Below are positions 7,185 through 55,630 of a DNA stretch of 64,000 nucleotides, in pieces (the stretch's first letter is position 1; each line of letters opens with the position of its first letter). Both the position numbers and the translations under genes were made by a program. Below the pieces are notes generated by a model. It ran no database searches. It was given only the letters and a program-made list of their open reading frames with translations, and was not told the DNA's origin. The DNA is from Gemmatimonadota bacterium. Its GTDB lineage: Bacteria; Gemmatimonadota; Gemmatimonadetes; Gemmatimonadales; GWC2-71-9. The DNA lies in assembly GCA_039591655.1 (NCBI GenBank), contig JBDHDE010000005.1:1-64000 (forward strand), given 5' to 3'.

Positions 7185-9464
7185 ATGCCCCGCGCACATT
7201 GGGTGGGCATGGCAGACTTTGTGGAACTCCTGCGGGCCGCGCTACGCGGTCGCTACTCGATCGGACGCAAGCTTGGCGAGGGCGGCATGGCTGTCGTCTT
7301 TCTCGCGAAGGACGAGCGGCATGACCGGAGCGTCGCACTCAAGGTGCTCCGGCCGGATCTGGCCTCCGAGGTCGGCGCGGAGCGATTCTTGAGGGAGATC
7401 AAGATCGCGGCCAAGCTGACCCACCCGCACATCCTCCCCCTGTATGACTCCGGCGAGGCCGACGGCTTCCTGTTCTACGTGATGCCCCTCATGGAGGGAC
7501 GGTCGTTACGGGAGCGCGTTGACAAGGAACGGCAGCTTCCACTGGATGAAGCAGTTCGCATCACGCAGGAGGTCGCGTCGGCGCTCGACTACGCGCATCG
7601 CCATGGTGTCATTCACCGGGACATCAAGCCAGCGAACATCTTGCTCCACGAAGGGGCGGCCATGGTGGCCGACTTCGGGATTGGCAAGCTGGTGAGCGCA
7701 GCCGAGGGCAAGATCACACAGACCGGGATGGCAATCGGCACGCCAGCGTACATGAGTCCGGAACAGGCATCTGCGGATTTCGAAGTGGATGGCCGCAGCG
7801 ATCTCTACAGCCTCGGATGCGTCCTGTACGAGATGCTGTCCGGTGAGCCGCCATACACTGGACCCACCGCGCAGGCGGTGATCGCCAAGCGGCTCGGCGC
7901 GCCGGTTCCGCACGTCAAAGTGGTTCGTGACGTCGCCGATCCGGTGGACGCGGTCGTCACGAGGGCGCTCGCGCGCACGCCGGTCGACCGATTTGCCTCA
8001 GCAGCCGAGTTTGCCGCGGCGCTGCGGGATGCACAGAGCGGAACGTTGCATACTCCGGAGGCTGTGCTGGCCGTCGGACAGGCCGGTAGCGATATCAAAT
8101 CCGTTGCGGTGCTGCCGTTCGCCAACTTGAGCGCGGATCCCGAGAACGAGTACTTCAGCGACGGCATGACTGAGGAGATCATCAACGTTCTCGGCAAGGT
8201 ACCGGGCATCCAGGTTGCGTCACGCACGTCGAGTTTCGCCTTCAAGGGTAAGGACGTCGACGTGCGACAGATCGGAGAGAAACTGGGTGTTGGGATCGTG
8301 CTCGAGGGAAGCGTACGCAAGGTGGGCCAGCGGATCCGCATTACCACGCAGCTCACCGATGTCACCAACGGCTACAACCTCTGGAACGAGACGTACGACC
8401 GGCAACTGGAGGACGTGTTCGCCATTCAGGACGAGATCTCCCGAGCGATCGCGGACGCCCTCAAGGTCAAGCTCGTCGGCGATATGGGGAGACGGATGGC
8501 CCCCGCGCCGGAGAACCTCGAAGCGTACAACCTCTACCTAAAAGGACGCTTCTTCTACAACAAGTTCACCGAGGTCGATCTCCGGCGAGGCGTCGAGCTG
8601 TTTGAGCACGCCTTGAAGGAGGCCCCGAAGTATGCTCGTGCCCACGCCGGTATCGCGGACTGTTGGGCCTATCTCGCGGACGATTGGGTGGCCCCAGACG
8701 AGGCGTACCCCAAGGCGAAAGCATCCGCGATGCGCGCGCTCGACCTCGAACCGTCCCTCGGAGACGCGTTCACCGCGCTGGGCAAGGTGCTGTGCTGGTA
8801 CGAGTGGGATTTCGCGGGTGCCGAACGGGAGCTGACGAGTGCGGTGAACCTGAACCCGAACTCGGCCGAAGCGCGCTTTGTCTTGGGCAGCGCGTTGCCG
8901 TGCGTCGGCAAGCTCGACAGGGGACTCGAGGAGCTGCGGCAGGCGCTCGTACTCGATCCGCTCGCCCCGCTGTTCAGTCGGTGGGTGGGCCGCTACCTGC
9001 TCTTCTCGGGCGACTACGACGGCACGATCGAGCAGAGCGAGAAGACGCTGGAGCTGGACCCCAACTACTTCCACTCGTTCCTTGATATCGGCTCCGCCTA
9101 CCTCGGCAAGGGCGCTCCCGAACACGCCCTCGAGTGGTACCGGAAGGGCCAGTCACTGCCGTCCAGCGTCCGCTCGTATGATGCACACCTGGTTCGTGCA
9201 CTTGCGGCCACGGGCCAGCAGGAAGAAGCACAAGCGATCCTCGAGCGGCTCGAAAAGGAGGCTCAGGAGCACTACCTCAGATCTGAAGTGCTCGCGATGG
9301 GCTATGCCGCCGTGGGGGACTTCGATGGGGCGTTCGCCGGCCTCGAGCAGGCAGTTCGGTCGCGCTCGGGAGGGCTCATCTTCATCCACCTGGATCCTGG
9401 CTACGAACCGCTGCGGACGGATGCGCGGTTCGCCAGGATCGTCGAGCAGGTGGGGGTCAGGTAG
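7185..9464 (+). CDS. Ser/Thr protein kinase with C-terminal TM, TolB-N-like region and TPR repeats (complete paralogue of the kinase at 1-2211)
   Basis: Gly-rich loop LGEGGMAVVF, VALK Lys, HRDIKPANILL catalytic loop, DFG, APE (GTPAYMSPEQ). Then LPFANLSADPENEYFSDGMTEEI motif and TPR-like repeats. Confidence 0.85.
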   Translation: MPRAHWVGMADFVELLRAALRGRYSIGRKLGEGGMAVVFLAKDERHDRSVALKVLRPDLASEVGAERFLREIKIAAKLTHPHILPLYDSGEADGFLFYVMPLMEGRSLRERVDKERQLPLDEAVRITQEVASALDYAHRHGVIHRDIKPANILLHEGAAMVADFGIGKLVSAAEGKITQTGMAIGTPAYMSPEQASADFEVDGRSDLYSLGCVLYEMLSGEPPYTGPTAQAVIAKRLGAPVPHVKVVRDVADPVDAVVTRALARTPVDRFASAAEFAAALRDAQSGTLHTPEAVLAVGQAGSDIKSVAVLPFANLSADPENEYFSDGMTEEIINVLGKVPGIQVASRTSSFAFKGKDVDVRQIGEKLGVGIVLEGSVRKVGQRIRITTQLTDVTNGYNLWNETYDRQLEDVFAIQDEISRAIADALKVKLVGDMGRRMAPAPENLEAYNLYLKGRFFYNKFTEVDLRRGVELFEHALKEAPKYARAHAGIADCWAYLADDWVAPDEAYPKAKASAMRALDLEPSLGDAFTALGKVLCWYEWDFAGAERELTSAVNLNPNSAEARFVLGSALPCVGKLDRGLEELRQALVLDPLAPLFSRWVGRYLLFSGDYDGTIEQSEKTLELDPNYFHSFLDIGSAYLGKGAPEHALEWYRKGQSLPSSVRSYDAHLVRALAATGQQEEAQAILERLEKEAQEHYLRSEVLAMGYAAVGDFDGAFAGLEQAVRSRSGGLIFIHLDPGYEPLRTDARFARIVEQVGVR

Positions 9465-17537: not shown

Positions 17538-18434
17538 ATGCCGAGTATAAGAAGCCGGATTGTCCGTCTGTTTCTCAGGTATCAGATCTGGAAGGCTGAC
17601 AAGAACGCCACTTTGCAGCAACGACGGGCGACCCTTGAAGATGCCGCACGGCGTCTGCCAATGCCACGTCGCGTAGATGTGCAGCAGACTACTGTTGGAG
17701 AGACCCCTGCCGAGTGGCTTCGGCCTGCCGACACCACTGACAACCGGGCGATTCTGTACTTGCATGGTGGTGCCTACACGATGGGGTCGTGCACAACCCA
17801 TCGGGCCCTGGCATCTCGTATTGCTGTCGCTAGCAAGGCTCCTGCACTGCAACCCGAGTATCGCCTTGCGCCTGAGCATCCATTCCCGGCTGCTCTTCAG
17901 GATTGTGTGGCTGCTTATCGCTGGCTGCTCGACTACGGAATTCCACCACAGAAGACAGTTGTCGCGGGCGACTCGGCTGGAGGTGGTCTGGCTCTAGCCC
18001 TGGCTGTCACGCTTCGCGACGACTATGTCCCACTCCCGGCCGCAATCGTTTGCATGTCGCCGTGGGCCGATCTTGAGCTGACAGGCCAATCGCTTAGGAC
18101 CCGCGCGAATGTCGATCCCGTCTGTAGCCTGGAGGAAAGCCAGTTTCATGCGGGCCAATATGTTGGGAAGAACGATCCCCGGGCGGCACTCATTTCACCC
18201 ATCTATGCGGACCTACGTGGCCTGCCGCCAGTACTCATCCATGTCGGCGACAGAGAGATTCTGTTGAGTGATGCGATGCGACTGGCAGAACGTGCTCGTG
18301 AAGATGGGGTTGATGTAGAGCTGAAGATCTGGGAGGGCATGTGGCATGTTTGGCATCTGCTCGCCGGGTACGTGCCGGAAGGTCGACAAGCGGTTGACGA
18401 AATCGGTGCTTTCATCAGCAAATACACAGACTGA
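17538..18434 (+). CDS. Alpha/beta hydrolase fold-3 esterase/lipase (HSL family); putative cassette
   Basis: HGGAY oxyanion motif and GDSAGG nucleophile elbow. C-terminal Asp/His consistent with the catalytic triad. Confidence 0.75.
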   Translation: MPSIRSRIVRLFLRYQIWKADKNATLQQRRATLEDAARRLPMPRRVDVQQTTVGETPAEWLRPADTTDNRAILYLHGGAYTMGSCTTHRALASRIAVASKAPALQPEYRLAPEHPFPAALQDCVAAYRWLLDYGIPPQKTVVAGDSAGGGLALALAVTLRDDYVPLPAAIVCMSPWADLELTGQSLRTRANVDPVCSLEESQFHAGQYVGKNDPRAALISPIYADLRGLPPVLIHVGDREILLSDAMRLAERAREDGVDVELKIWEGMWHVWHLLAGYVPEGRQAVDEIGAFISKYTD

Positions 18435-18450
18435 GGCGGCCGTGGCAGCC

Positions 18451-18478
18451 GCCCAACAGGCGCATGAAGCTGCGGGGA
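18451..18478 (+). other. Truncated attC-like half-site GCCCAACaGGCGCATGAAGCTGCGGGG (R''/L'' arm only)
   Basis: RYYYAAC core plus the family motif (reverse complement of CCCGCAGCTCATGCGC). No matching 3' arm is seen, which could mark the distal end of the array. Confidence 0.3.
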
Positions 18479-18609
18479 CTTGAAACTTCCATGCCGGATC
18501 GCTCGTCTTTCCTATTAATTAGCAGAGACCCGTTAACTGGTAGAGGTCCGGCTCCCGAGAGTTCCGGGCCCGCCATACTCCAAGCTGAAACACCACTGGA
18601 GGCAGACGG

Positions 18610-20376
18610 ATGAAGTCCCATTTCGGGCTCGTGATGCTCGCCCTGGTTTCCACGCCGGCGGCGGCACAGACCGATACCCTGGTTGGCATCCAGGACCTCT
18701 CGGCGCGAGAGCATAGGATGCAGTCTTTCGTGCTTCCCCGCGCGCAGCAGCTGCAGGTAGAGGCCGTGGGAGGCGAGCCGCGGGGCATGAGCGCCTTCGA
18801 GCGGTTCCTGAAGCACGGCATCTTCATGAACAGGCACCGAGAGGACTTGGGGGACGTGTGGCCGGCGAACGCCTGGATTCTGGATGCCGGGACGCGGCGG
18901 GTGGTGTGGGAGCTGCGCACCGCGCCGACGCGGGAGAAAGGAGGCGGACTCCGCATGTTCGAGGGGACGCTCCAGCTGCAGGCTGGGGCGTACGAGGTGC
19001 ACTACGCGGCCCTCTACCCGGTCGCGGGGTTCGCTGGCGATGGGGATGACTGGCGCGCGCGAGGCTGGGACACGGTTTCCGACCTCGAGGGGCCGTATCT
19101 GGACGACGACCGCTATCGCGAATTCGGGATCGTGATCCGCGGGATGGGGTCGCGCGGCGCCGAGGGGGTGGCTGCGGAGGAGGGCGCTGCCGGGCCGCTC
19201 GTGGCGCTCAAGGGAGCGCAGGGCGAGGCGCGGGAACGGGTGGGCTTCGCGCTGGCGCGCACTACCGCGGTCGAGATCCGGGCGCTGGGTGAGGAGGTGG
19301 GCGATGAGTGGTTCGACTACGGTTGGATCGACGACGCGGCCTCCGGAGAGACGGTGTGGACCTTTGGCGACGGAGCAGTGAGCCACGCTGGTGGGGCGAA
19401 GAAGAACCGGGTGGTGACGGACCGGGTCACCCTGCCTGCGGGGCGCTACCTCGCCCATTATGTCACCGACGATTCTCACCAGGCGGGAGGTTGGAGCCAG
19501 GCCCCGCCCTACGACCCCTCGGCCTGGGGCCTCACGATTCGCGCGATCGACGCCGCCGCGGCCGCGCACGTCACGACGTTCCAGCACCAGCCCTTCCCCG
19601 CCGCCGCCGCCGTGATTGCGCTCACGGCTCTGGGTGACCGTGAGCTCGAGGCCCAACCATTCGTCGTCGAACGCCCGCTGGAGATCCGAATCTTCGCGCT
19701 GGGCGAAGGAACAGGTGAGATGCACGATTACGGCTGGATCGTGGACGGTGCGGGACGTGCGATCTGGCGGATGGAGTACAGCGAGACGCGAAGCGCGGGA
19801 GGCGCCACCAAGAACCGCCTGTTCGATGGCACCATGCGCCTCGAGCCCGGCAGTTACACCGCCTATTTCATGACCGACGGCTCCCACTCGTTCGGGGGCG
19901 GCTTCAACGCATCCAGGCCGTTCGACGCAGAGCACTGGGGCATGACCATCCTCCCGGCAAACGGCGCCACGAAGCAGGACTTCGTTTTGGAGCAAGCGGA
20001 CAAGCCCGACCCATCCGTCCTCGCCCGGATCGTCAAGGTGGGCGATGGGCGGCGGGAGGAGGCGCGGTTCCGCCTCACGCGGGACGGGAGCGTTCGGGTC
20101 CTGGCCATCGGCGAGGGGAGCGGCGAGATGTACGACTACGCCTGGATCGAGAACGCCGCGGGCAGCGTGGTGTGGCGCATGACGTACGAAGGGACCGAAC
20201 ACGCCGGCGGCGCTACCAAGAACCGGCGGGTGGACGAGGTGATCAGCCTCCCGGCGGGCGAGTACACAGTGCGTTACCGGAGCGACGGCTCGTACTCGTT
20301 CCGGGATTGGGACGCGGATCCGCCGGACGATCCGTTGAGTTGGGGGGTGACGGTGTCCAGGGTAGGAGGAGGCTAG
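18610..20376 (+). CDS. Secreted protein made of four tandem ~125-aa repeats of unknown function
   Basis: Signal peptide MKSHFGLVMLALVSTPAAAQ. Four repeats share A(L/I)GEG.GEM(Y/H)DYGWI..A.G..VW.M.Y..T..AGGA(K/T)KNR......L.AG.Y...Y.(T/S)DGS.S...W....P.D...WG.T(I/V). Confidence 0.6.
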   Translation: MKSHFGLVMLALVSTPAAAQTDTLVGIQDLSAREHRMQSFVLPRAQQLQVEAVGGEPRGMSAFERFLKHGIFMNRHREDLGDVWPANAWILDAGTRRVVWELRTAPTREKGGGLRMFEGTLQLQAGAYEVHYAALYPVAGFAGDGDDWRARGWDTVSDLEGPYLDDDRYREFGIVIRGMGSRGAEGVAAEEGAAGPLVALKGAQGEARERVGFALARTTAVEIRALGEEVGDEWFDYGWIDDAASGETVWTFGDGAVSHAGGAKKNRVVTDRVTLPAGRYLAHYVTDDSHQAGGWSQAPPYDPSAWGLTIRAIDAAAAAHVTTFQHQPFPAAAAVIALTALGDRELEAQPFVVERPLEIRIFALGEGTGEMHDYGWIVDGAGRAIWRMEYSETRSAGGATKNRLFDGTMRLEPGSYTAYFMTDGSHSFGGGFNASRPFDAEHWGMTILPANGATKQDFVLEQADKPDPSVLARIVKVGDGRREEARFRLTRDGSVRVLAIGEGSGEMYDYAWIENAAGSVVWRMTYEGTEHAGGATKNRRVDEVISLPAGEYTVRYRSDGSYSFRDWDADPPDDPLSWGVTVSRVGGG

Positions 20377-20419
20377 AGCCCCACAGGCGGAGACACCTGT
20401 TGTGAGCTGGAAGTGGCGC

Positions 20420-20551
20420 ATGGCCCCGGCGCTGGCAATTGCCGGATGGTTCGTTACCGGATTGGTCGGAACTCCACTGTGGGGCTCTGCGATTGGCGCT
20501 GTCTGCGGCTGGCTGGTTGGCTGGTACCTGGGGCGGGAATACCTGGATTGA
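20420..20551 (+). CDS. Small (43 aa) glycine-zipper membrane protein, paralogue of 9555-9716
   Basis: Hand translation: MAPALAIAGWFVTGLVGTPLWGSAIGAVCGWLVGWYLGREYLD. Confidence 0.35.
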   Translation: MAPALAIAGWFVTGLVGTPLWGSAIGAVCGWLVGWYLGREYLD

Positions 20552-20598
20552 CGCCTTCTGAGGGCGACGCGGAGCATCTACCACAGGGAGGTTCCCAA

Positions 20599-20772: not shown

Positions 20773-21984
20773 ATGACCGGATCTTCAGCAACCGAGTTGC
20801 CGTTAAGCGGGTACCGGGTGCTCGATCTTTCCCGGATACTCGCCGGCCCATACTGCACCATGATTCTCGGGGATCAGGGCGCCGAGGTGATCAAGGTGGA
20901 GCGGCCTGACTCCGGCGACGACACGCGGAGCTGGGGACCTCCCTTCGCCGGCGGCGAGAGCGCTTACTACCTCTGCTGCAACCGAAACAAGAAGTCCATT
21001 GCCGTCGACCTCAAGCACCCCTCGGGCGCTGAGCTGGTGCGCGAGCTGGCCAAGGTCTCCGACGTCCTGGTCGAGAATTTCACCCCGGGACTCACGCAGC
21101 GCTTCGGGCTGGACTACGAGACGCTCCGGGGCATTAATCCCCGGCTCGTGTACGCGTCCATCACCGCGTACGGGCAAGACGGCCCCTACCGGGATAGGCC
21201 GGGCTACGACATGGTGCTCTCCGCCGTCGGAGGGCTCATGTGGATCACCGGCGAGCGGGACGGGAACCCGTGCAAGGTGGGTGTGGCGATCACCGACGTG
21301 CTCACCGGCATCTATGCGTCGGGGGCGATCACCGCAGCGCTGCTGTGGCGGGAGCGCTCCGGCCGGGGCCAATACCTCGACATCAGTCTGCTCGACGCCC
21401 AGGTCTCCGCGCTCGCCAACATCGCCAGCAATTACCTAGTCGCGGGTCAGGAAGCGACGCGCTGGGGCACGGCCCACGAATCCATCATTCCCTATCAGGT
21501 GTTTCGCACCAAGGACCGGCCGATCGCCATCGCCGTGGCGAATCAGAAGCTGTGGGTCAACTTCTGCAAACTGGTCGGCAGGCCGCAGTGGCTGGAGGAT
21601 CCGCGGTTCGAGTCCAACCCCAAGCGGGTCGAGCACCGCGAGGTGCTCCTTCCGCTCATCGACGAGCTGATGGCCCAGCGGACGTGTGACGAGTGGATGG
21701 AAGTGTTCGTGGAAGCGGCGATCCCGTGCGGTCCAGTCAACGACATGGAACATCTCTTCGCTGACCCGCAGGTGCTGCACCGGGCCATGATCGCCGAAGT
21801 GCCGCACCCGACGATCGGGTCCCTCCGTCTCACTGGGACGCCGATCAAGTACTCAGAGACACCCGCAACCATCCGCCGCCATCCACCGCTCCTCGGCGAG
21901 CACACCGACGAGGTCTTGGCCGAGGTGCTGGAGTATCAGCCCGAGAGAATCGAGGCCCTCAGACAACAGCGCGCCATTCTGTAG
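20773..21984 (+). CDS. CoA-transferase family III (CaiB/BaiF/Frc-like) protein
   Basis: N-terminal LSGYRVLDLSRILAGPYCTMILGDQGAEVIKVERP...RNKKSIAVDLK is the family III CoA-transferase signature. Confidence 0.8.
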   Translation: MTGSSATELPLSGYRVLDLSRILAGPYCTMILGDQGAEVIKVERPDSGDDTRSWGPPFAGGESAYYLCCNRNKKSIAVDLKHPSGAELVRELAKVSDVLVENFTPGLTQRFGLDYETLRGINPRLVYASITAYGQDGPYRDRPGYDMVLSAVGGLMWITGERDGNPCKVGVAITDVLTGIYASGAITAALLWRERSGRGQYLDISLLDAQVSALANIASNYLVAGQEATRWGTAHESIIPYQVFRTKDRPIAIAVANQKLWVNFCKLVGRPQWLEDPRFESNPKRVEHREVLLPLIDELMAQRTCDEWMEVFVEAAIPCGPVNDMEHLFADPQVLHRAMIAEVPHPTIGSLRLTGTPIKYSETPATIRRHPPLLGEHTDEVLAEVLEYQPERIEALRQQRAIL

Positions 21985-21991
21985 CTCGGCA

Positions 21992-22969
21992 TCACTGTGG
22001 CGGGAGCATGCCAATACCGGGCTTTGGCTCCTTGGGACGGGCGATGCGCCGGAACTGGAAGCCAGCGATGTTGAGAGTCGGTAGGGCTCCGCACACCAGC
22101 ACGGCCTGCCGCAGAATCAATCCGCCGATCAGACCCAGTACGGCGCCGACGGCCACCACGAGCAGGTCGCTACCGGCACCGGGCCGGGCCATGGAGCGAT
22201 ACACGATCAACATCAGCATCAGGGGCGCGGCCAATCCCAGGATGAAGTAGCCGACGACGAACGAGCGCCTCCGCAAGATGCGCTCCGCCGACTCCCGCGA
22301 GTCGGGCAGCTTGTACGCCGCCTGAAGGAAGAAGACGATGGCAAGCACCTCCAGGGCCACCAACACGGCCGCTTCCAGGGCCATCGTCCGCAGTGACTCC
22401 GCAGTGGCGGCGGCCTCGTTGAAGAGCGTCATGCCCAGCATGATCGTGAAGTGACCCGTGACCAGCGCTGAGATCACGAAGACCACCGGAACCACCCCGG
22501 AACGCCAGAAGGGTATGCCCTTCGAGGCACCGAGCAGGATACCGGTATATGCCATCGTCATCACGGCAAACACGATTCCGGTGACGGCGATGACGGTCAC
22601 GACCGTTCTGCCGCCAGAGGTCTGGCCGACGTCGGTGTACAAGTGCAGGATGAAGTGCAGCAACGCCAGGATCATGAAGATGCCGATGATCCAGAACCCC
22701 CGTGCGATCCACGACGACCCCGGTTTCATGCCGGACAGGAAGGCGCGGGTCGGTGAGCCGAGATCCGCAAGCAGGCAGATGCTGCCGATGAGGAGCGCCG
22801 GGAAGGCGATCCAGAGGCCCACCGTCGTCGACGGTTCCGCACCATCACCGAGGAAGCCGTTGATGGCTGCGATGGTGTAGGCACCGGCTCCGACGCCGCC
22901 GAGAAAGAGATAGATCGCTACGAGCCAACCCCACTCCGTCTGCAGCTGACCATCGACTTTCGGATCCAT
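21992..22969 (-). CDS. NrfD/PsrC-type polytopic membrane anchor subunit of a molybdopterin oxidoreductase complex
   Basis: 8+ TM helices (WGWLVAIYLFLGGVGAGAY...). Start at ATG 22969 (MDPKVDG), 4 nt after the FeS gene stop; the ORF-track N-terminal extension is rejected. Confidence 0.7.
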   Translation of the reverse strand: MDPKVDGQLQTEWGWLVAIYLFLGGVGAGAYTIAAINGFLGDGAEPSTTVGLWIAFPALLIGSICLLADLGSPTRAFLSGMKPGSSWIARGFWIIGIFMILALLHFILHLYTDVGQTSGGRTVVTVIAVTGIVFAVMTMAYTGILLGASKGIPFWRSGVVPVVFVISALVTGHFTIMLGMTLFNEAAATAESLRTMALEAAVLVALEVLAIVFFLQAAYKLPDSRESAERILRRRSFVVGYFILGLAAPLMLMLIVYRSMARPGAGSDLLVVAVGAVLGLIGGLILRQAVLVCGALPTLNIAGFQFRRIARPKEPKPGIGMLPPQ

Positions 22970-22973
22970 AGGC

Positions 22974-23600
22974 CTATCTCGGCGCGAGGTAGTAAACCTT
23001 GGGTTTGTTGCCGAGCTCCGGATGCAGCACTTCACCCCGGTGCCTCTTGATCAGGATGGAGACCTCGCTGTCCGGATCATCGAGATCGCCGAAGGTGCGC
23101 GCGACGGCCGGGCATGCCTCGACGCACGCCGGCTGCCTGCCGTCGGTGATTCTGTCCTTGCAGAAATCACACTTCGTCGCGACCCCACATCCGGACCGCT
23201 CCTCCCAGGCCTGCTTGGCGAATTCCTCATAGGGCGAGAGCGGCAGCCCTTCCGGGAAGTAGCTCTCCCACTTCGGGACCGTGTAACGCGCGCCGTAGGG
23301 ACATGCCATGATGCAATACTTGCAGCCCATGCACTTATCCTTCTCCACAATCACGATGCCGTCGTCACGCTTGACGGTGGCGCCGGTGGGACACACCTCG
23401 AGGCATGACGGCTCGTCGCACTGCATGCAGAGGACCGGCAAGGCCTGGCGGACGACATTGGGAAAGGTTCCCGTCTCGCCCTTGAGGAGCCGACACCAGA
23501 AGACCCCGGGCGGGGTGTGATTCGCCACCTTGCACGCCATGACGCAAGCGTAGCAGCCGTAACACCTCTTGAGGTCAATGACCATTCCCCAGCGCGGCAT
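22974..23600 (-). CDS. 4Fe-4S ferredoxin-type iron-sulfur subunit (DmsB/PsrB/SoeB-like)
   Basis: Four Cys clusters (CYGCYACVMAC, CMQCDEPSCLEVCP, CMGCKYCIMACP, CDFC...C..ACP). Confidence 0.85.
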   Translation of the reverse strand: MPRWGMVIDLKRCYGCYACVMACKVANHTPPGVFWCRLLKGETGTFPNVVRQALPVLCMQCDEPSCLEVCPTGATVKRDDGIVIVEKDKCMGCKYCIMACPYGARYTVPKWESYFPEGLPLSPYEEFAKQAWEERSGCGVATKCDFCKDRITDGRQPACVEACPAVARTFGDLDDPDSEVSILIKRHRGEVLHPELGNKPKVYYLAPR

Positions 23601-23611
23601 GGCTGTCTCCC

Positions 23612-26302
23612 CTAGCGACTTTTTGCTGGCTCCGCCCTATAGATCTTCACGCGGACGCATATGTCCTGGTTGAACGTGAGAGGATCGGTATGGGGCAGGT
23701 CCATCTCGACGAGGTCGTTGAAGAACGTGCCCTTCCCCTTGGCGATGGGCATATAGTTGCCCCAGTGACCCGCCACGGCCGCGATGGCGAGATGGTGGGG
23801 CTCGATCCCGTCCGTCGTGGCCACCCACCCTTTCACGCGGTGGCCCTTCGGGTTCTCCAGCCAGACGAAGTCGCCGTCCCCGATGCCCTTCGCAGCGGCA
23901 GTGTCCTTGTGCATCTGGATCGAGTACACGTGCGGGTCTTCCTGGGAGCACTCGTCGAGGTATGGATTCTGCTGCGTCATCGAGTTGCAGTGCATGACCG
24001 CACGCCAGTAGAAGGCGTGCAGGTCGTACTCGGGGTCTGTCTCGGTGTGTGTCGGACAAGGATACCAGTCCGCCAGGGCCTTGAATCGTGACCAGTCCAG
24101 GTCGAAGAAATCCTGGCCGCCGAACTCGTTCCATAGTCTGTCGATCTGCTCCCCCGAGTCGATGAAGTACTCGAAGTAGATCGGCACCCTCGAAGGGTTG
24201 AACCACTTCCAGTAGACGTCTTCCTTCTTCTTCGGCCAGGTGAAGACACCCTTTTGCCTCACGTGCTCGAGGCCGTGCTCCTCGCCGAAGCGATCCTTGA
24301 GAAGGCGGTCGCAGACCTCTTCCCAGGTGTGTTCCACGCTGCCGTCTTCCACGAGCTTGTACTTCTCGTCCATCTCGCCGCCGTAGCGTACGCCGATCGA
24401 GTCATTCAGTCCCTTGTAGTACTTGCCCAGGATGCCGAGTCGCTTGCAGATGTCCAGCATCACCTCGTTGAAGTCACGCCGCTCGTATAACGGCTCGATG
24501 ACCGGCTGCCGGATCGACCAGCCCCAGTCATCCTCACCCTGCGGATGGGAGAACGTCGACGGGAAACTGACAGCCGGGGTGTAGCGTTCGAGGAAGCAGG
24601 TGTCAGGAAGCACGATGTCCGCGACCGCCTCCTCGAACTCCGTCACAAACAACTGGAACGAGAAAATGAAGTTGAACTTCTTCAGGAAATTCTCGGTCAC
24701 CGCCTCAGCGTTCCCCATGGTCATCACCGAGTTGGAGCCGAAGTTGATCATGACGTCGGGCCTGTAGGGGATCTTGAAGCGCTCCAGCATCTCGAACCAC
24801 CGTGGGCTCGTGATGGTGAACGCGTTGTAGATCGATGTCGGGAACATGTCGTGCAGGTCCAGCCGGGTCGGGGGCTTCGGCACCCGCATCGGGTAGGGGA
24901 CGTGATCGTAGACCCACGTCTTGACCACCATCAGGCCGTCGGGGCAGGGGTAGGGTACCTGGTCGGGCTTGCCGGTCTTCTCGTACCCGCTCCCGACCGC
25001 GGCCCCCAGACCGAACGCTCCCCCGTACGTATCGGCTGCGCCGACGATGTGGTTGACCATGTCGATGGCGAGGCAGGTCCAGCCGGAGTTGACGTGCCCC
25101 TGGCTGCCGCGGAAGAAGTGTGTCGCCACCGGACGCTTGGGGATCCTCTTCGGGCCCTTGCTCGTCTCGATGGTGACCGTGGCGCCGATTTCGGCGGCCT
25201 CGCCGAACTCCTTGGCGATTCGGCTCACGGTAGCCGCCGGCACCCACGTGACCTCCTCGACGTACTCCGGGGTGTACTGCCTGACGTGCTCCTTTAGCAG
25301 CTCGAAGGCCGGGCGGCACTGCACACCGTCTACCGTGTAGGTGCCCAAGAGCGCGACCTCGTTCGCCTCGTCCTCGCATTCCACTCGGGTCACCGACGCA
25401 TCGTTGTGCACCTTGGGACAGTTGTCGACCGAGTCCCAGACTAGAGGCTTGTTGGTCTCCTTGTCCCGCATGTAACGCCCGTCCGAGGGCCGGATCAGGT
25501 ACGGGGCGTTCGTCTTGTACATCAGGTATTCGGCGTCGTAGATGCCGTGTTCGTTGAGCAGGGAGTTGATCAGGCCCAGTGCCAGAGCGCCGTCGGTTCC
25601 GACCCGAACGGGCACCCACTCGTGAGCCTTGGAGGCCTGGGCACTCTGAAACGGATCGAAGACGATGTTCTTGAAGCCGCGGAACCGGGCGTCGGCGGCC
25701 TGGGTGGCGTTCTGCACAGCCACGTGCCCGGCACCGTGACCCTTGGAGCAACCGAAGTTCAGCGCGTAGTTGCAGTGCGCGAAGTCGGGGATGATCGACC
25801 ACGCGGCGTGCATGATCCCGTTCATGAAGTGCGCGCCGTTGCCGCAATGCAGCCCGCCGCCGGAAACCCAGTAGTTGGGCGTTCCAAAGGCCTTCATGAA
25901 CCCGATCACCCCAAACCGGATCTCCGAAGCCTGGGTCGTGGTCGCCTGGAAATAGGCCCCTCGAGGGTCCTGCTCGCGGCACTCTTCCAGCTTCTTGACG
26001 ATGATGTCGAGCGCCTCGTCCCAGGAGATACGCTGCCACTTCGGGTCGACGCCGAGGCCTTTGGCGGGATTGGTTCGCTTCAGGGGGTAGTTCACCCGAT
26101 AGGGATCGTAGAGCAGGTGAGACGACGCGAGGCCCTTAACGCAGATCCGACCCCGCCCGCTCGGGGCATCGAGGTTTCCCGCGACTTCCGTCACGACACC
26201 GTTCTGCCGCCGGACCTTGATGCCGCACATGCAGTAGCACTGCCCGCAACTAGTCGGGATCCAAACATCCTCCTTGAGCGGCTTCTGCGCGGTTACGGCC
26301 AT
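23612..26302 (-). CDS. Molybdopterin-dependent oxidoreductase catalytic subunit (DMSO-reductase/CISM family), no Tat signal
   Basis: 896 aa. N-terminal FeS0 Cys motif SCGQCYCMCG...C after only ~17 residues (MAVTAQKPLKEDVWIPTSCGQC), with no RR twin-arginine leader. SD AGGAG 7 nt upstream of ATG. Gene order A-B-C. Confidence 0.8.
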   Translation of the reverse strand: MAVTAQKPLKEDVWIPTSCGQCYCMCGIKVRRQNGVVTEVAGNLDAPSGRGRICVKGLASSHLLYDPYRVNYPLKRTNPAKGLGVDPKWQRISWDEALDIIVKKLEECREQDPRGAYFQATTTQASEIRFGVIGFMKAFGTPNYWVSGGGLHCGNGAHFMNGIMHAAWSIIPDFAHCNYALNFGCSKGHGAGHVAVQNATQAADARFRGFKNIVFDPFQSAQASKAHEWVPVRVGTDGALALGLINSLLNEHGIYDAEYLMYKTNAPYLIRPSDGRYMRDKETNKPLVWDSVDNCPKVHNDASVTRVECEDEANEVALLGTYTVDGVQCRPAFELLKEHVRQYTPEYVEEVTWVPAATVSRIAKEFGEAAEIGATVTIETSKGPKRIPKRPVATHFFRGSQGHVNSGWTCLAIDMVNHIVGAADTYGGAFGLGAAVGSGYEKTGKPDQVPYPCPDGLMVVKTWVYDHVPYPMRVPKPPTRLDLHDMFPTSIYNAFTITSPRWFEMLERFKIPYRPDVMINFGSNSVMTMGNAEAVTENFLKKFNFIFSFQLFVTEFEEAVADIVLPDTCFLERYTPAVSFPSTFSHPQGEDDWGWSIRQPVIEPLYERRDFNEVMLDICKRLGILGKYYKGLNDSIGVRYGGEMDEKYKLVEDGSVEHTWEEVCDRLLKDRFGEEHGLEHVRQKGVFTWPKKKEDVYWKWFNPSRVPIYFEYFIDSGEQIDRLWNEFGGQDFFDLDWSRFKALADWYPCPTHTETDPEYDLHAFYWRAVMHCNSMTQQNPYLDECSQEDPHVYSIQMHKDTAAAKGIGDGDFVWLENPKGHRVKGWVATTDGIEPHHLAIAAVAGHWGNYMPIAKGKGTFFNDLVEMDLPHTDPLTFNQDICVRVKIYRAEPAKSR

Positions 26303-26599
26303 GGGTCAACTCCTACCTGTCTCCTGCGAGGACGCTATGATGGATGTTCGGGAGGCTCAGGGACACACCTCCAAGAACGTATAGGAGCCCACACATGAAG
26401 ACCGCGTGAAACCTGGCTGAACGGGCGTGAGGTGGCGGGGTCGGGCTCACCAGGATGGTAAGTTGAGGTCCCTCAGTCACTTAGATGGCTGTGGGGCCGG
26501 GGGCTCCGGAGCGCTGCCAACACTCGCCGTTGGTTATCTTCAGAACGCTGAGGAGTAGATGTTCTCCGAGGAGCATGCGCACACGGTCGGGCGGCTGCC

Positions 26600-41175: not shown

Positions 41176-44079
41176 TCAGTTCACTGACTCGAGGCGCGAC
41201 CGGACCGCATCGACTCGCGGGGCGAGGGCCGCATCCGCCCCGATCCAGTGGCGCAGGAACTCGACGTAGGCTTCGGCGGCGCCGGTGATGTCCCCCTCCG
41301 CGTCCAAAGTCCGTCCCAGGGCCTCGAGACCCGGGGGTACGAACTCCTGGTCGTCGGGGCGAATCCCGTAGCGTAGGCGACGGAGCCCCTCCTCGCGCGT
41401 TGCTCCCCGCGCCGCCAGGGTGAGCGCCAGCCGGAAGCGAAGCGGCGCCGCCTCCTCGGTGACCCACGGCCAGTATCCCGCATCCTCCAAACCGGCGCGC
41501 AGGCGAGCCACCCCCAGCGTCGTGTCCCCCGCGATCAAGTCGGCCCAGCCCTGCACCGCGGTGAAGAGCCCGCGGTAGGGGAGGGTGTTGCCCGTGGTGT
41601 CGCCGGCCAGCCCGGCGGCGGCGCGGAGGCGGGCGGTGTCGCCATGGCCCTGGCCCAGTGCCCCGAGGGCACGCCAGTAGTCCGTCTCCGGATCACCGCG
41701 GGTGGTGAGCGACTGAGCGTCGGCAAGTTGCCGCAAGGCACGCCCGGCGCTCGACGCGGGAGCGTACCCGGCGAGCACGGGCAGCAGGCTGACCGTCCTC
41801 GCCAGAACCGGTGTGGTCTCAAACAGCGCCGTCAGCTGTGCGCCGGCGTCCTCCAGTCGGCCGGCGGCGTTGAGCGTCCGCACCTTGGTGGCAATGAGCT
41901 CGGCGCGCCGCGCGTCGTTCGGCGGCGTGGCGGCCAGGATGGTGTCGACGGCGGCCACCAGCGTTGCCGAGCTCCAGCCGGTTGGGAGCCGGGCGACGCC
42001 GATCATTAGACGCAGCAGGCGCATCGCCTCACGCACCGGGTCGAAGCCCGGTCCGAAGGCGACAGTCCCGATCAGCGCCACCGCCGAATCCGGTGGACTC
42101 CAGAGAAGGCGGCGCGCCAGCTCGAAGCGCTCGACCTGCCGTGCGCTCGTGCTCTGCGCAAGTGAGCCGAAGTAGCGCGCAAAGCGTGTGCTGTCCCCTT
42201 CGAGGAGACTCAGCTCCAGCGGGTCGAGCAAGGCCGGCGCCAGCGTCGAGTCCAGCTCGTACCCGCGATCGAAGGGCGCATAGAGCTCCTCTGGCGGCAT
42301 CGCGATGACAGACCGCGCCCGGTACTGCACGTCGCCGTATTGGTGCCACCCTTCCGCGTCGTTGGGGTAGCGCGTCACGTAGGCGCGCAGGGTGTCCAGC
42401 GCCGCCAGGCGCCCCGCCTGGAACAGCTGGTTCGCCCGCACCAGGGTGCGCTCCCGCGGCGGGAGTCGCTCGGCGAACTCCGCCGCTGCCTGACCCAGGC
42501 GCACGGCCTGGGGCGATCCGTGCCCCCGCAGCCAGCTGATCGCCTGGCCCATGCGGTACAGGGCAAGGGCGAACGTGGGGTCCTCACCTATCGCCGTGCC
42601 GAACGCAGCCGCCGCCGAGTCCCAATGTGAGCGCCTGTAGTACTGCTCTCCCTGCAGGTACGCCCGGGTTGCGTTGAGGGAGCCCGTCGTGATGGCACTG
42701 ACGCGGAGATCTGGCAGGGGTTGGCGGGAGCGCCAGATCTCCCGCAGCAGCCTCAGGCTCAAGCTGTCCACCAGGGCGAGTACGCTGTCCGCCGGTCCGT
42801 CGGCCGTGGCCTGCGCCAGACGCTCCCCCCGAACGGTGCGCAGCTCCGCCGAGAGCCGTACCTCCGGCCCGGCCTCGACGATGCTGCCCAGGAGGACGGA
42901 GCCGGCACTCACCTCCCGCCCCACGGCGAGCGAGCCCTCCAGGTCCACGCCGTCCTCATCCGCACGCTGTCGCCAGCGGTGCAGCACCGTGCGGGTGTCC
43001 ACCGTCCGGATGCCGCCGACGGCGTCCAGGTTGGTGGAAAGGAGGTCCACCATCCCCTCTCCTAGGACCGCCACGTTCGGACCGGACGTCGTGAACGGAA
43101 CGACGGCGATGACTTGGGCATCGGAGGCGACCGCGCTCTCCAGGCTCCGCGGCCGCAGCCACCACGCGACGGCCAGCACCGCCAACAGGCCTGCTGCGCC
43201 CAGCACGACTCCCCGTCGCCGGCGGCCGGGACGCCAGTCCACCTGGCCCGATTGCAGCGCGGCCGCGAACTCGGCTCCGGTGGCGAACCGCTGTCCCGGC
43301 GACTTCGCCAGGGCCTTTGCCGTGACATCGGCCACGTGCTTGGGCGTGTCGGGCCGAGCCTGGCGCAGTTCGGGCGTGGCTCCGGCGAGGACCTTCGCGA
43401 AGATGGCCTCGAGGGTGGGTCCCTGGTACGGCGGGCGCCCGGCGAGCATCTCGTACAGCACGCACCCAAGGCTGTAGATGTCCGTCCGCGCGTCGATCTC
43501 ACCGGTGTCCGCCGCCGCTTGTTCGGGGCTCATGTACGACGGTGTGCCGATGGGACTGCCCTCCTGCGTGATCTGGGTCGCGGCCGCAGCGCTCACCGCA
43601 CGGGCGATCCCGAAATCGGTTACCACCGCGTGGCCACCCGAGAGCAGGATGTTGGCCGGCTTGATATCCCGGTGCACGACCCCCTGCCGGTGGGCGTAGT
43701 CGAGGGCGCTCGCAACCTCCGAGGCGATGGCCACCGCGTTGTCGACCTGCAGCGGACCCTCGCGCTCGAGGCGGATCGCCAGCGACTCTCCCTCGACGAA
43801 CGGCATGACGTAGTAGAGGATCCCGTCCGCGGTGCCGGAGTCGTGGAGCGGCAGGATATGAGGATGCTGCAGGCGGGCTACGATCTGGATCTCGCGCAGA
43901 AAGCGCTCCGTGCCCAGCGAGGCGGCGAGCTCCGGGCGGAAGACCTTGATGGCCACCGGCCGGTCGTGCTTGAGGTCCCGGGCCAGGTAGACGATGGCCA
44001 TGCCGCCGCGACCGATCTCACGGTCCACGGCATAGCGCTCGGCGAGCGCGTAGCGCACCTGCCCGATGATATTGCTCAC
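41176..44079 (-). CDS. Ser/Thr protein kinase with TM and very large C-terminal TPR/helical-repeat region (start uncertain, GTG proposed)
   Basis: IGRGGMAIVYLARD, AIKVF, HRDIKPANILL, DFGIAR, GTPSYMSPEQ. There is no in-frame ATG near the kinase N-terminus, so a GTG at 44079 is proposed. Confidence 0.75.
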   Translation of the reverse strand: MSNIIGQVRYALAERYAVDREIGRGGMAIVYLARDLKHDRPVAIKVFRPELAASLGTERFLREIQIVARLQHPHILPLHDSGTADGILYYVMPFVEGESLAIRLEREGPLQVDNAVAIASEVASALDYAHRQGVVHRDIKPANILLSGGHAVVTDFGIARAVSAAAATQITQEGSPIGTPSYMSPEQAAADTGEIDARTDIYSLGCVLYEMLAGRPPYQGPTLEAIFAKVLAGATPELRQARPDTPKHVADVTAKALAKSPGQRFATGAEFAAALQSGQVDWRPGRRRRGVVLGAAGLLAVLAVAWWLRPRSLESAVASDAQVIAVVPFTTSGPNVAVLGEGMVDLLSTNLDAVGGIRTVDTRTVLHRWRQRADEDGVDLEGSLAVGREVSAGSVLLGSIVEAGPEVRLSAELRTVRGERLAQATADGPADSVLALVDSLSLRLLREIWRSRQPLPDLRVSAITTGSLNATRAYLQGEQYYRRSHWDSAAAAFGTAIGEDPTFALALYRMGQAISWLRGHGSPQAVRLGQAAAEFAERLPPRERTLVRANQLFQAGRLAALDTLRAYVTRYPNDAEGWHQYGDVQYRARSVIAMPPEELYAPFDRGYELDSTLAPALLDPLELSLLEGDSTRFARYFGSLAQSTSARQVERFELARRLLWSPPDSAVALIGTVAFGPGFDPVREAMRLLRLMIGVARLPTGWSSATLVAAVDTILAATPPNDARRAELIATKVRTLNAAGRLEDAGAQLTALFETTPVLARTVSLLPVLAGYAPASSAGRALRQLADAQSLTTRGDPETDYWRALGALGQGHGDTARLRAAAGLAGDTTGNTLPYRGLFTAVQGWADLIAGDTTLGVARLRAGLEDAGYWPWVTEEAAPLRFRLALTLAARGATREEGLRRLRYGIRPDDQEFVPPGLEALGRTLDAEGDITGAAEAYVEFLRHWIGADAALAPRVDAVRSRLESVN

Positions 44080-44223
44080 AGCATGGCGTCGTGTGGCTGC
44101 TTGTGGATGATAGGCCCGAGCCGTGCCCCCGGCCAGATGCCCCGGCTGGAGAGCGGTTGGCCGCGGGAACCTTCCTGTCGGCCCGATGTTTGAGAGGGGT
44201 AGCCACGCTAGCCTTGCACCGCC

Positions 44224-44928
44224 GTGACCGCATTTCGCTCCCGCCTCGCTCTCGTCCTGGGGTTCGCCGCGCTGCCGGCGCCTGGGGAGCCACTCGTGCA
44301 TCCTGGCGCGGCCGGCGGAGCCGTCCACTTCGTCGAGACCTTCGAGGGCGACTGGCGTGACCGGTGGCGGGAGCGGCGCCTCGCTAACCGTACGACGCGC
44401 TATAAGGTCGTCGAGGACGGCGGCGGGACGGTGCTGCAGGCCGATAGTCGCGCGGGGGCCTCCGGGGTGTGGCGCCCCGTGACGGCGGAGGAGCCCGTGG
44501 CCGGACGCCTGGCGTGGCGCTGGAAGGTGGAGCACACGATCGCGGACAACGACCGCGAGCGGGAGCGCCGGGGCGACGACTACGCCGCGCGTGTGTTCGT
44601 GGTGTTCGACGGGGATTTCGCCAGTCGAAGGGCCAAGGCCGTGTGCTACGTGTGGGCAGCACGGGAGTCCGTGGGCAGTGTTTTCCCGAGCCCCTACACG
44701 GCGAACGTCGCCATGGTCGTGTTGGCGAGTGGGGACGACGAGGCCGGCGCATGGCGCCGCGAGGAGCGGGACGTCCTCGCCGACTACCGTGCCTTCTTCG
44801 GCGAGGACGCCGATGACGTCTCGGCGGTGGCGATCATGGTGGACACGGACAACACCGGGTCACGGGCGCGGTCGTACTTCGACGACGTGGAGCTGGAAAT
44901 CCGGACCGCCGTCGCGGACGCCCGGTAG
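44224..44928 (+). CDS. DUF3047-like secreted protein
   Basis: Signal peptide, then HFVETFEGDWRDRW...YKVVEDGGGTVLQADS...LAWRWKVE...DDYAARVFVVFDG, which resembles the DUF3047 family. Confidence 0.45.
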   Translation: MTAFRSRLALVLGFAALPAPGEPLVHPGAAGGAVHFVETFEGDWRDRWRERRLANRTTRYKVVEDGGGTVLQADSRAGASGVWRPVTAEEPVAGRLAWRWKVEHTIADNDRERERRGDDYAARVFVVFDGDFASRRAKAVCYVWAARESVGSVFPSPYTANVAMVVLASGDDEAGAWRREERDVLADYRAFFGEDADDVSAVAIMVDTDNTGSRARSYFDDVELEIRTAVADAR

Positions 44929-47966: not shown

Positions 47967-48037
47967 GGTCGTAACGATAGGTTCCGGTGCGGCAGGGGTC
48001 CAGATGCCCGATAGGCGGGCAGGCGGAGGCGACGCGG

Positions 48038-54598: not shown

Positions 54599-55630
54599 AT
54601 GGACGCACACCAGACCCAACGAGCAGGCCCGTCGCGAATCCTGGTGGGAGCGGCGCTGATCGCCCTCGTGGCCGTGATCTCCGCCTGCTCCGGGGAGTAT
54701 CCCCAATCCACGCTCCACCCGACGGCGGACTTCGGCAGCGAGATCGACCGCCTGTACCGGACCATCGTATGGTGGGCGCTGGGCGTGTTCGTGGTGGTGG
54801 AGACGGCGCTCTTCGTGGCGATCCTCAAGTTCCGCGATAGGCCGGGCGCCGGCGATCCCAAGCAGGTGCACGGCAGCACGCTGCTGGAGATCTCCTGGAC
54901 CCTGGCACCCGCGGTGGTGCTCATCTTCATCGCCGTCCCGACGATCCGCACCATCTTCCGCACCGACGGCACCCCGGCGGCGGACGCGATGGAGGTCGAG
55001 GTCATCGGGCACCAGTGGTGGTGGGAGTTCCACTACCCCGAGCTTGGCATCACCACGGCCAACGAGCTCCACATGCCGGCGGGTCGACCGGTGTCGCTGG
55101 TGATGACCTCCGAGGACGTGATCCACAGTTTCTGGGTGCCGAAGCTCGGTGGTAAGCGGGACGTGATGCCCGGCCGCACGACCCGGATCGCGTTCACCCC
55201 CGACTCGGTTGGTGCCTTCTTCGGGCAGTGCGCCGAGTTCTGCGGCGTGTCGCACGCGAACATGCGTATGCGGCTCGTGGTGGACGACTCGGCGGGTTTC
55301 GCGGCCTGGGTGGCGCAGGAGCAGACGCCGCCGCCGGGTGTCGAGGCCCTCGGCGCGGTGGAGCAGCAGGGTTATGAGGTGTTCCGCACCAAGGGCTGCA
55401 TGGCCTGCCATACCATCGATGGTGTCGCTGCCGGCGTGTTGGGACCCGATCTCACGCACGTGGGTAGCAGGACGACCATTGCCGCCGGCATTCTGCCCAA
55501 CACGGCGGAGGGGCTCGCGCGGTGGTTGCGGAACCCGGTAGCCGAGAAGCCCGGGAGCCTGATGCCCCGGATGCCGCTGACCGAGGAAGAGATCGCGGCC
55601 CTCGCCGCGTATCTCAAGAGCTTGAAATGA
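54599..55630 (+). CDS. coxB: Cytochrome c oxidase subunit II with C-terminal cytochrome c domain (caa3-type)
   Basis: CuA site H..CAEFCGVSHANM; C-terminal heme-c CMACH. Signal/lipoprotein-like N-terminus. Confidence 0.85.
   Translation: MDAHQTQRAGPSRILVGAALIALVAVISACSGEYPQSTLHPTADFGSEIDRLYRTIVWWALGVFVVVETALFVAILKFRDRPGAGDPKQVHGSTLLEISWTLAPAVVLIFIAVPTIRTIFRTDGTPAADAMEVEVIGHQWWWEFHYPELGITTANELHMPAGRPVSLVMTSEDVIHSFWVPKLGGKRDVMPGRTTRIAFTPDSVGAFFGQCAEFCGVSHANMRMRLVVDDSAGFAAWVAQEQTPPPGVEALGAVEQQGYEVFRTKGCMACHTIDGVAAGVLGPDLTHVGSRTTIAAGILPNTAEGLARWLRNPVAEKPGSLMPRMPLTEEEIAALAAYLKSLK

Follow-up and report, generated by a model that had tools for sequence, protein, structure and literature searches.

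A cytoplasm-facing molybdenum A-B-C oxidoreductase family paired with a SUGCT-like CoA-transferase: a candidate PadBCD-related acyl-CoA:quinone oxidoreductase

In a 64,000-nucleotide stretch of a Gemmatimonadota genome (contig JBDHDE010000005.1, positions 1 to 64,000; hereafter the window), three closely packed minus-strand genes at 21992-26302 encode the catalytic (A), iron-sulfur (B) and membrane-anchor (C) subunits of a molybdenum oxidoreductase, and a cytoplasm-facing, quinone-linked A-B-C complex is well supported as a prediction. From sequence relationships and conserved gene context we favour, with moderate confidence, a PadBCD-related acyl-coenzyme A (CoA):quinone oxidoreductase that would work with the SUGCT-type CoA-transferase encoded beside it. 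The domain matches of A, B and C are strong, and the three genes are not chance open reading frames (ORFs). The features concerned are the following.

23612..26302, minus strand: A subunit, a Mo/W-bis(pyranopterin guanine dinucleotide) catalytic protein of 896 amino acids (aa) without a twin-arginine translocation (Tat) leader, recognised by Pfam domains, Cys motifs and homologue alignment
26306..26314, minus strand: translation-start context of A, with AGGAG (26310-26314) and an in-frame TGA (26306-26308), read directly from the sequence
22974..23600, minus strand: B subunit, a 208-aa ferredoxin with four predicted [4Fe-4S] clusters and no signal peptide, recognised by Cys groups, Pfam and its match to PsrB
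21992..22969, minus strand: C subunit, a 325-aa NrfD/PsrC-type membrane anchor with 8 predicted helices, recognised by the NrfD profile and its Lys/Arg (K/R) topology
20773..21984, plus strand: family III CoA-transferase, 403 aa, SUGCT-like (PF02515, 458 bits)

The A subunit begins with MAVTAQKPLKEDVWIPTSCGQCYCMCG, its ATG preceded by AGGAG 7 nt on the 5′ side and by an in-frame TGA two codons upstream, which makes a longer N-terminus, and with it the upstream RRxFLK motif that the first-pass annotation had raised, impossible. The protein contains the Pfam domains Molybdop_Fe4S4 (PF04879), Molybdopterin (PF00384) and Molydop_binding (PF01568), and its FS0 motif, C19-x2-C22-x3-C26-x27-C54, retains four cysteines (C19, C22, C26 and C54) that are invariant in 15 homologues. 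Cys153 (codon 25844-25846), the predicted metal ligand, is likewise invariant in these homologues and lies in the segment GGGLHCGNGAH, which is invariant across the family except for His152; it aligns with Cys-bearing active-site segments of PsrA (2vpw) and acetylene hydratase (2e7z), whose cysteines are the metal ligands in the published structures. The listed close homologues of A are 860-900 aa long and align from residue 1, and are thus leaderless as well.

The B gene starts with an ATG 12 nt past the A stop codon, with GGGGAG ahead of it, and its product carries 16 cysteines in four complete canonical groups (C13/16/19/23, C58/61/66/70, C90/93/96/100 and C144/147/159/163), with PsrB as the best solved relative (E 3e-51; 177 bits). 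The C subunit matches NrfD (PF03916) at E 6e-31 and likely starts at the ATG at 22969, 5 nt past the B stop codon, giving 325 aa, rather than at the GTG at 23035; a PDB sequence search with C detected no NrfD-type chain. Every element from which the first-pass annotation had set out, namely the Tat-less A-B-C arrangement with its AGGAG start, the four-cluster subunit and the NrfD/PsrC-like anchor, is thus present in the sequence on the minus strand.

Membrane orientation is indicated by the charge distribution of C, which is rich in K and R at both termini and in the even-numbered loops, with a K+R count of 18 on the termini side and 4 on the opposite side. The same bias is found in ten C proteins of the family (13-20 versus 0-3), whereas Escherichia coli NrfD (5 versus 12) and DmsC (4 versus 8) have the opposite one. 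C is therefore predicted to be N-in/C-in and inverted relative to NrfD and DmsC, as has been proposed for SoeC (PMC8076601). Together, the missing Tat leader of A and the inverted charge bias of C support the cytoplasm-facing, quinone-linked complex, and on this point the first-pass annotation, which had proposed a cytoplasm-oriented quinone-linked enzyme, is borne out, the listed homologues being leaderless too.

What A is related to was less evident from standard models. No NCBIfam equivalog fits A, the best match, PhsA, reaching 211 bits where the cut-off is 694, and NCBIfam contains no PadB model. The best solved sequence relatives are PsrA (2vpw, E 1e-31), acetylene hydratase and ArrA, and an AlphaFold model of A (pLDDT 69) compared with the PDB by Foldseek returned generic MopB matches only, at 13-20% identity. 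In a library-wide search, the nearest representative clusters (~34-51% identity, full length) are mostly Tat-less, and Tat-bearing proteins predominate further out. A tblastn search of plasmids with A found no close relative, the best match being 27% identical, with Sporomusa, Sulfuricella and a Burkholderia SoeA-type protein as outgroups.

Over its full length, A is 38.7% identical (617-620 bits) to both Mo subunits, P0283 among them, of a locus from a Desulfobacteraceae metagenome-assembled genome (MAG; L094, 1-18509). This locus, a complete pad-like cluster, encodes two PadB-like Mo paralogues, a 4-hydroxybenzoyl-CoA-reductase-like trio, a B and a membrane subunit (PadC/D-like), a TRAP transporter and a five-subunit PadEFGHI-like 2-oxoacid:ferredoxin oxidoreductase (OFOR), of which subunits G, H and I best match the corresponding Pad NCBIfam model while PadE ranks second and PadF sixth. 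A relative of P0283, a Chloroflexi MAG protein with 49% identity, is annotated padB2. The motifs G-L-H-C-G-N-G-A-H-F and FG(C/S)(S/N)KG are common to A and the L094 Mo subunits, the segment around the Cys ligand reading GGGLHCGNGAHF in A and GVGLHCGNGAHF in L094. The gene order of L094 agrees with the padBCD-padEFGHI order of denitrifiers (PMC4453571, PMC5109826); the Desulfococcus multivorans genome is reported to be without padB and padEFGHI (PMC5109826). A coarse neighbour-joining (NJ) tree, drawn without support values and star-like in its deep branches, groups the window family with Tat-less clades, the pad-like proteins among them, and sets it apart from these as a clade of its own. In the same tree, some Tat-bearing proteins form a small clade whose sister is a Tat-less representative, within a radiation that otherwise lacks Tat signals (P0143, P0154, P0182, P0194); as far as an unsupported tree can tell, this suggests that membrane orientation may switch within this enzyme group.

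The Mo subunit ActB of alternative complex III (ACIII) is a fused protein, a cofactor-less MopB-like part joined to an FeS part, with a Tat signal and with haem c subunits alongside. Here, A and B are separate genes, and A retains both FS0 and the Cys ligand. B scores 62-88 bits with ACIII subunit B, far less than with PsrB, and no ActB chain is present among the PDB matches of A at E<=0.001. A thus has no affinity to the ACIII Mo subunit, a grouping the first-pass annotation had also considered, and an ACIII or Qrc module was rejected on the retained cofactor ligands, the separate subunits and the cytoplasmic orientation.

The gene next to the operon provides a lead to its function. The CoA-transferase gene converges on C, 7 bp separating both stop codons, and its product is ~50% identical over 386 residues to human succinyl-CoA:glutarate CoA-transferase (SUGCT, 9br6; E 4e-132), with succinate--glutarate CoA-transferase as the best NCBIfam match (411 bits, below the cut-off of 750). 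When ORFs from 86 related loci were clustered, an orthologue of this gene was found in 35 of 82 loci and in 23 of the 38 with >=6 kb on both sides, spanning at least six phyla; it is missing within 10 kb in ~40% of well-flanked loci, and counting any CoA-linked neighbour raises the number to 28 of the same 38. Its placement varies: convergent and downstream in Gemmatimonadota, Zixibacteria, Latescibacterota and some Planctomycetota loci, different in the remaining Planctomycetota, and co-directional directly upstream in Acidobacteriota. Because the orientation differs between phyla, selection on the pairing itself is suggested. Sequence identity to the window copies also covaries, the CoA-transferase being 72-85% identical where A is ~80-88% identical; at the Acidobacteriota operon-type loci the values are 55-61% for the CoA-transferase and ~79-80% for A. 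By synteny and covariation across phyla, the CoA-transferase is a predicted conserved functional partner of A-B-C, contradicting the suggestion of the first-pass annotation that it may be unrelated.

Two observations concern this partner at individual loci. On a complete Zixibacteria chromosome (L014, 16802-17641), the CoA-transferase ORF beside the operon measures 279 aa against ~400 elsewhere and may be a frameshift or pseudogene. In Acidobacteriota, a stretch of ~950 bp is conserved between the CoA-transferase gene and A (L080, 6972-7922; also L051, L052, L059, L060, L065, L068 and L069). A forward ORF in this stretch, termed c9, was rejected as an operon gene, since it is in the wrong frame, with codon position 1 the most variable; the sequence points to an opposite-strand gene (for example L080 7041-7730, 229 aa), a shifted forward frame being formally possible, and neither ORF has a Pfam match.

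Other neighbours recur as well. A census by Pfam family, covering 138 flanking proteins of 21 loci across phyla, is led by FdhD (14) and CoA_transf_3 (13), which makes FdhD and CoA-transferase III the two most conserved neighbours of A-B-C; next come ADP-forming acyl-CoA synthetase domains (5-6), DASS transporters (5) and thiolases (3), with AMP-binding ligases rare (2). The 25 families listed for these neighbours include no sulfur-oxidation family and no acyl-CoA dehydrogenase, and no sox, dsr, apr, sat or sulfonate-degradation genes occur among them or among the window ORFs scanned. In two Acidobacteriota loci (L052 and L086), a single strand carries oah, had, a dch-like hydratase, a short-chain dehydrogenase/reductase, a thiolase (accompanied by DUF35 in L052), the CoA-transferase, A-B-C and an ADP-forming acyl-CoA synthetase; oah (534 bits, cut-off 464) and had (469 bits, cut-off 339) both score above their NCBIfam equivalog cut-offs. 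In the benzoyl-CoA pathway, steps of the oah/had/dch type end in glutaryl-CoA, so that this gene order places A-B-C directly after glutaryl-CoA-yielding steps. HdrA/MvhD/NuoEF-like genes lie upstream in other Acidobacteriota loci, OFOR alpha and beta genes of a two-subunit, 2-oxoacid/2-oxoglutarate-like type are adjacent in Planctomycetota, and a Thermoplasmata member adjoins an aldehyde:ferredoxin oxidoreductase. Distant Tat-less relatives also adjoin CoA-transferase III, acyl-CoA dehydrogenase, enoyl-CoA hydratase and TRAP or MFS transporters.

One further locus, from an Eisenbacteria MAG (L004, 7845-14168), has A-B-C beginning 15 bp after ATP-citrate lyase in a cluster that also holds aconitase, isocitrate dehydrogenase and OFOR, with an acetyl-CoA hydrolase/transferase after A-B-C. 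A fumarate-reductase-like role, prompted by this reductive tricarboxylic acid (TCA) cycle context, was dropped because the context is a one-off.

A working scheme can be drawn from these observations. The SUGCT-type CoA-transferase would convert a carboxylic acid, a C5-type dicarboxylate such as glutarate being the likeliest, to its CoA thioester, or would handle the acid as the thioester. A would then oxidise the C-H bond beside the thioester at its Cys-ligated Mo centre, taking the oxygen from water. This centre probably bears a sulfido ligand, given that FdhD is a conserved neighbour of the family, although absent from the window; the role of FdhD in formate dehydrogenases is established and offers an analogy for a sulfido-Mo centre suited to C-H oxidation. 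Electrons would pass from FS0 through the four B clusters and reach a cytoplasm-side quinone site in C, and the quinol would feed the respiratory chain, for which the window also encodes a haem-copper oxidase. If the reaction resembles that of PadBCD, a 2-oxoacid would be formed; from glutaryl-CoA this would be 2-oxoglutarate, and succinyl-CoA could be regenerated as the CoA donor through 2-oxoglutarate oxidation, closing a self-sustaining CoA loop.

The specific form of this scheme, a Mo-dependent and O2-independent glutaryl-CoA (C5-dicarboxylyl-CoA):quinone oxidoreductase, with 2-oxoglutarate as the product of alpha-oxidation of glutaryl-CoA and the 2-oxoglutaryl-CoA ester as intermediate, is offered tentatively and is, in exactly these terms, unlikely; it would fit the SUGCT likeness, the DASS transporter, the Acidobacteriota operon order and the OFOR and TCA neighbours. 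If true, it would add a new oxygen-independent C-H oxidation step to central carbon catabolism: the CsiD/LhgO route would gain an anaerobic counterpart and glutaryl-CoA dehydrogenase an alternative, one that delivers four electrons to quinone, and many uncultured sediment and soil phyla would have a new end-route for lysine, dicarboxylate and benzoyl-CoA catabolism.

Several points weigh against the PadBCD-related assignment and its glutaryl-CoA form. An identity of 39% does not transfer substrate specificity, and the pad-like reference is itself assigned by its gene context, with no biochemically characterised PadB in the comparison and all five L094 OFOR subunits below their NCBIfam equivalog cut-offs; the NJ tree carries the limits given above. 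The enzyme may run as an oxidase or as a reductase, and glutaryl-CoA offers a less activated alpha C-H than phenylacetyl-CoA, in which the bond is benzylic. FdhD, DASS, OFOR and acyl-CoA synthetase are absent from the 64-kb window, where the CoA-transferase is the sole partner and, being convergent, is not co-transcribed with A-B-C. Finally, in a mobile module the linkage could partly reflect co-transfer.

This last point leads to a cytoplasmic reductase or other oxidoreductase for something other than a CoA ester, be it polysulfide or sulfur (as the former bacterial Sre), a free organic acid or an oxyanion, with the CoA-transferase linkage produced by co-transfer of modules. Such an enzyme would be in keeping with PsrA, acetylene hydratase and ArrA as the best solved relatives, with fold matches to generic MopB, with cross-phylum identities (72-88% for A, B and the CoA-transferase, 65-75% for C) that suggest spread as a block, and with the well-flanked loci that have no CoA-transferase nearby. 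We nevertheless judge it unlikely, as the pairing survives rearrangement between convergent-downstream and co-directional-upstream placements, CoA-linked neighbours of several independent kinds are found repeatedly and in different phyla, and even distant Tat-less relatives lie beside CoA-transferase III, acyl-CoA dehydrogenase, enoyl-CoA hydratase and organic-acid transporters. CoA-ester chemistry could also mean PadBCD proper, that is, a true arylacetyl-CoA (phenylacetyl-CoA-type) oxidoreductase feeding carbon from aromatic amino acids and acids into the benzoyl-CoA pathway. The pad-like proteins are the closest relatives with an interpretable gene context, and the benzoyl-CoA lower-pathway and HdrA/MvhD/NuoEF-like genes beside Acidobacteriota members, the aldehyde:ferredoxin oxidoreductase in Thermoplasmata and the adjacent OFOR genes in Planctomycetota would all suit it. 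However, activation falls to a conserved SUGCT-like dicarboxylate CoA-transferase and not to an arylacetate-CoA ligase, AMP-binding ligases accounting for 2 of 138 flanking proteins; the recurrent transporter is of the DASS di/tricarboxylate type; the OFORs adjacent to family members are two-subunit, with no five-subunit PadEFGHI type beside them; and in the NJ tree the window family stands apart from the pad-like clade. Nor does the surrounding of A-B-C resemble a Pad cluster, in which the phenylglyoxylate oxidoreductase PadEFGHI and the phenylacetate-CoA ligase PadJ would lie beside it: the window holds no OFOR, and the family neighbours are CoA-transferase III and the two-subunit OFOR. PadBCD proper is therefore distinctly unlikely.

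Cytoplasm-facing Mo-bisPGD A-B-C enzymes are usually taken for SoeABC, and metagenome surveys count them towards sulfite oxidation; the first-pass annotation likewise likened the operon to SoeABC-type enzymes and named sulfite as a candidate substrate. A SoeABC-type sulfite:quinone oxidoreductase would oxidise cytoplasmic sulfite to sulfate and reduce quinone. The gross architecture does agree, with Tat-less A and B and an 8-helix anchor of inverted predicted topology (PMC8076601); PhsA is the best NCBIfam match of both A and a SoeA-type protein; and some loci have a transporter of DASS, the 'sodium:sulfate symporter' family, beside them. The likeness ends there. A is merely 26.5% identical to a Tat-less 978-aa Burkholderia protein of SoeA type, which stood for SoeA here in place of the Allochromatium vinosum protein, and is ~80 residues shorter. 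That protein has neither of the motifs common to A and the L094 Mo subunits, reads HGGFC-SANM around the Cys ligand where A has LHCGNGAH, and falls far outside in the NJ tree. The IMG name 'sulfite dehydrogenase (quinone) subunit SoeA' is given to its Burkholderia clade, on relatives of 81-85% identity, but to none of the A homologues listed. The reported occurrence of SoeC is limited to Proteobacteria, a few Clostridia and Aquificae (PMC8076601), taxa other than those of the window family, and neither the window ORFs scanned nor the 25 families listed in the 21-locus census included sulfur-oxidation or sulfonate-degradation genes. We consider a SoeABC-type enzyme highly improbable and sulfite, the substrate the first-pass annotation had put forward, poorly supported. 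The family thus has a SoeABC-like architecture yet appears tied to CoA-thioester metabolism, and scoring it as a sulfur-cycle marker would be wrong.

The preferred PadBCD-related acyl-CoA:quinone oxidoreductase would have a broad distribution. Relatives are encoded by at least 391 GTDB species genomes, in Gemmatimonadota, Zixibacteria, Latescibacterota, Planctomycetota, Acidobacteriota, Myxococcota and some archaea, the closest (93%) coming from a Gemmatimonadaceae MAG. The cross-phylum identities cited above hold between MAGs of Gemmatimonadota, Zixibacteria, Latescibacterota, Planctomycetota and Myxococcota (L007-L086 compared with 20773-26302 of the window) and are far above the expectation for vertical descent, so that the module looks horizontally mobile. 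Judged by its sequences, the family is part of a large, uncharacterised Tat-less radiation, widespread in uncultured bacteria, which would also contain PadBCD-like enzymes.

Elsewhere in the window, a haem-copper oxidase subunit I gene (COX1, E 3e-160) lies at 55522-57393, which makes the organism probably at least facultatively aerobic and provides a sink for quinol-derived electrons. The G+C content is 0.61-0.65 left of ~26 kb, operon and CoA-transferase included, and 0.66-0.73 to the right, with the step at the operon's upstream end. A 720-aa ORF at 18415-20577 (minus strand) overlaps a 588-aa ORF at 18610-20376 (plus strand), neither with a Pfam or NCBIfam match. Four large Ser/Thr protein kinase genes are present (19-2211, 7185-9464, 41176-44535 and 45516-48707), the first two with TPR repeats, and an Rfam search of the window returned nothing.

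Among known systems, PsrABC of Thermus thermophilus (2vpw) provides the best solved relatives of A and B, with the same cofactors and the same anchor type, but Psr faces the periplasm with a Tat leader, its anchor topology is opposite and identity in the structural alignment is ~20%. SoeABC of A. vinosum and Aquifex aeolicus is alike in its Tat-less A and B, its A-B-C order and its 8-helix inverted anchor (PMC8076601), and differs in the low identity and length of A, the Cys-ligand motif, the host taxa and the sulfur-metabolism neighbours, none of which is among the 25 families listed in the 21-locus census. The window CoA-transferase has the family III fold of human SUGCT and about half of its residues in common, and differs in its sub-cut-off NCBIfam score (411 versus 750), its substrate range being putative. 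PadBCD is reportedly due to Rhee & Fuchs (1999). It is the phenylacetyl-CoA:acceptor (quinone) oxidoreductase (EC 1.17.5.1) of Thauera aromatica and Aromatoleum (PMC5109826, PMC4453571), and the likeness lies in a membrane-bound, three-subunit Mo-FeS enzyme acting on a cytoplasmic CoA thioester, which the window A-B-C is predicted to be able to reach, in the full-length identity of 39% and the motif that A has in common with padBCD-padEFGHI-like Mo subunits, and in the association with CoA-activating enzymes and 2-oxoacid oxidoreductases. The window family differs from it in forming a separate clade, in pairing with a SUGCT-like CoA-transferase instead of a phenylacetate-CoA ligase, in having no adjacent PadEFGHI, and in its recurrent FdhD and DASS partners; its substrate is therefore probably unlike that of PadBCD.

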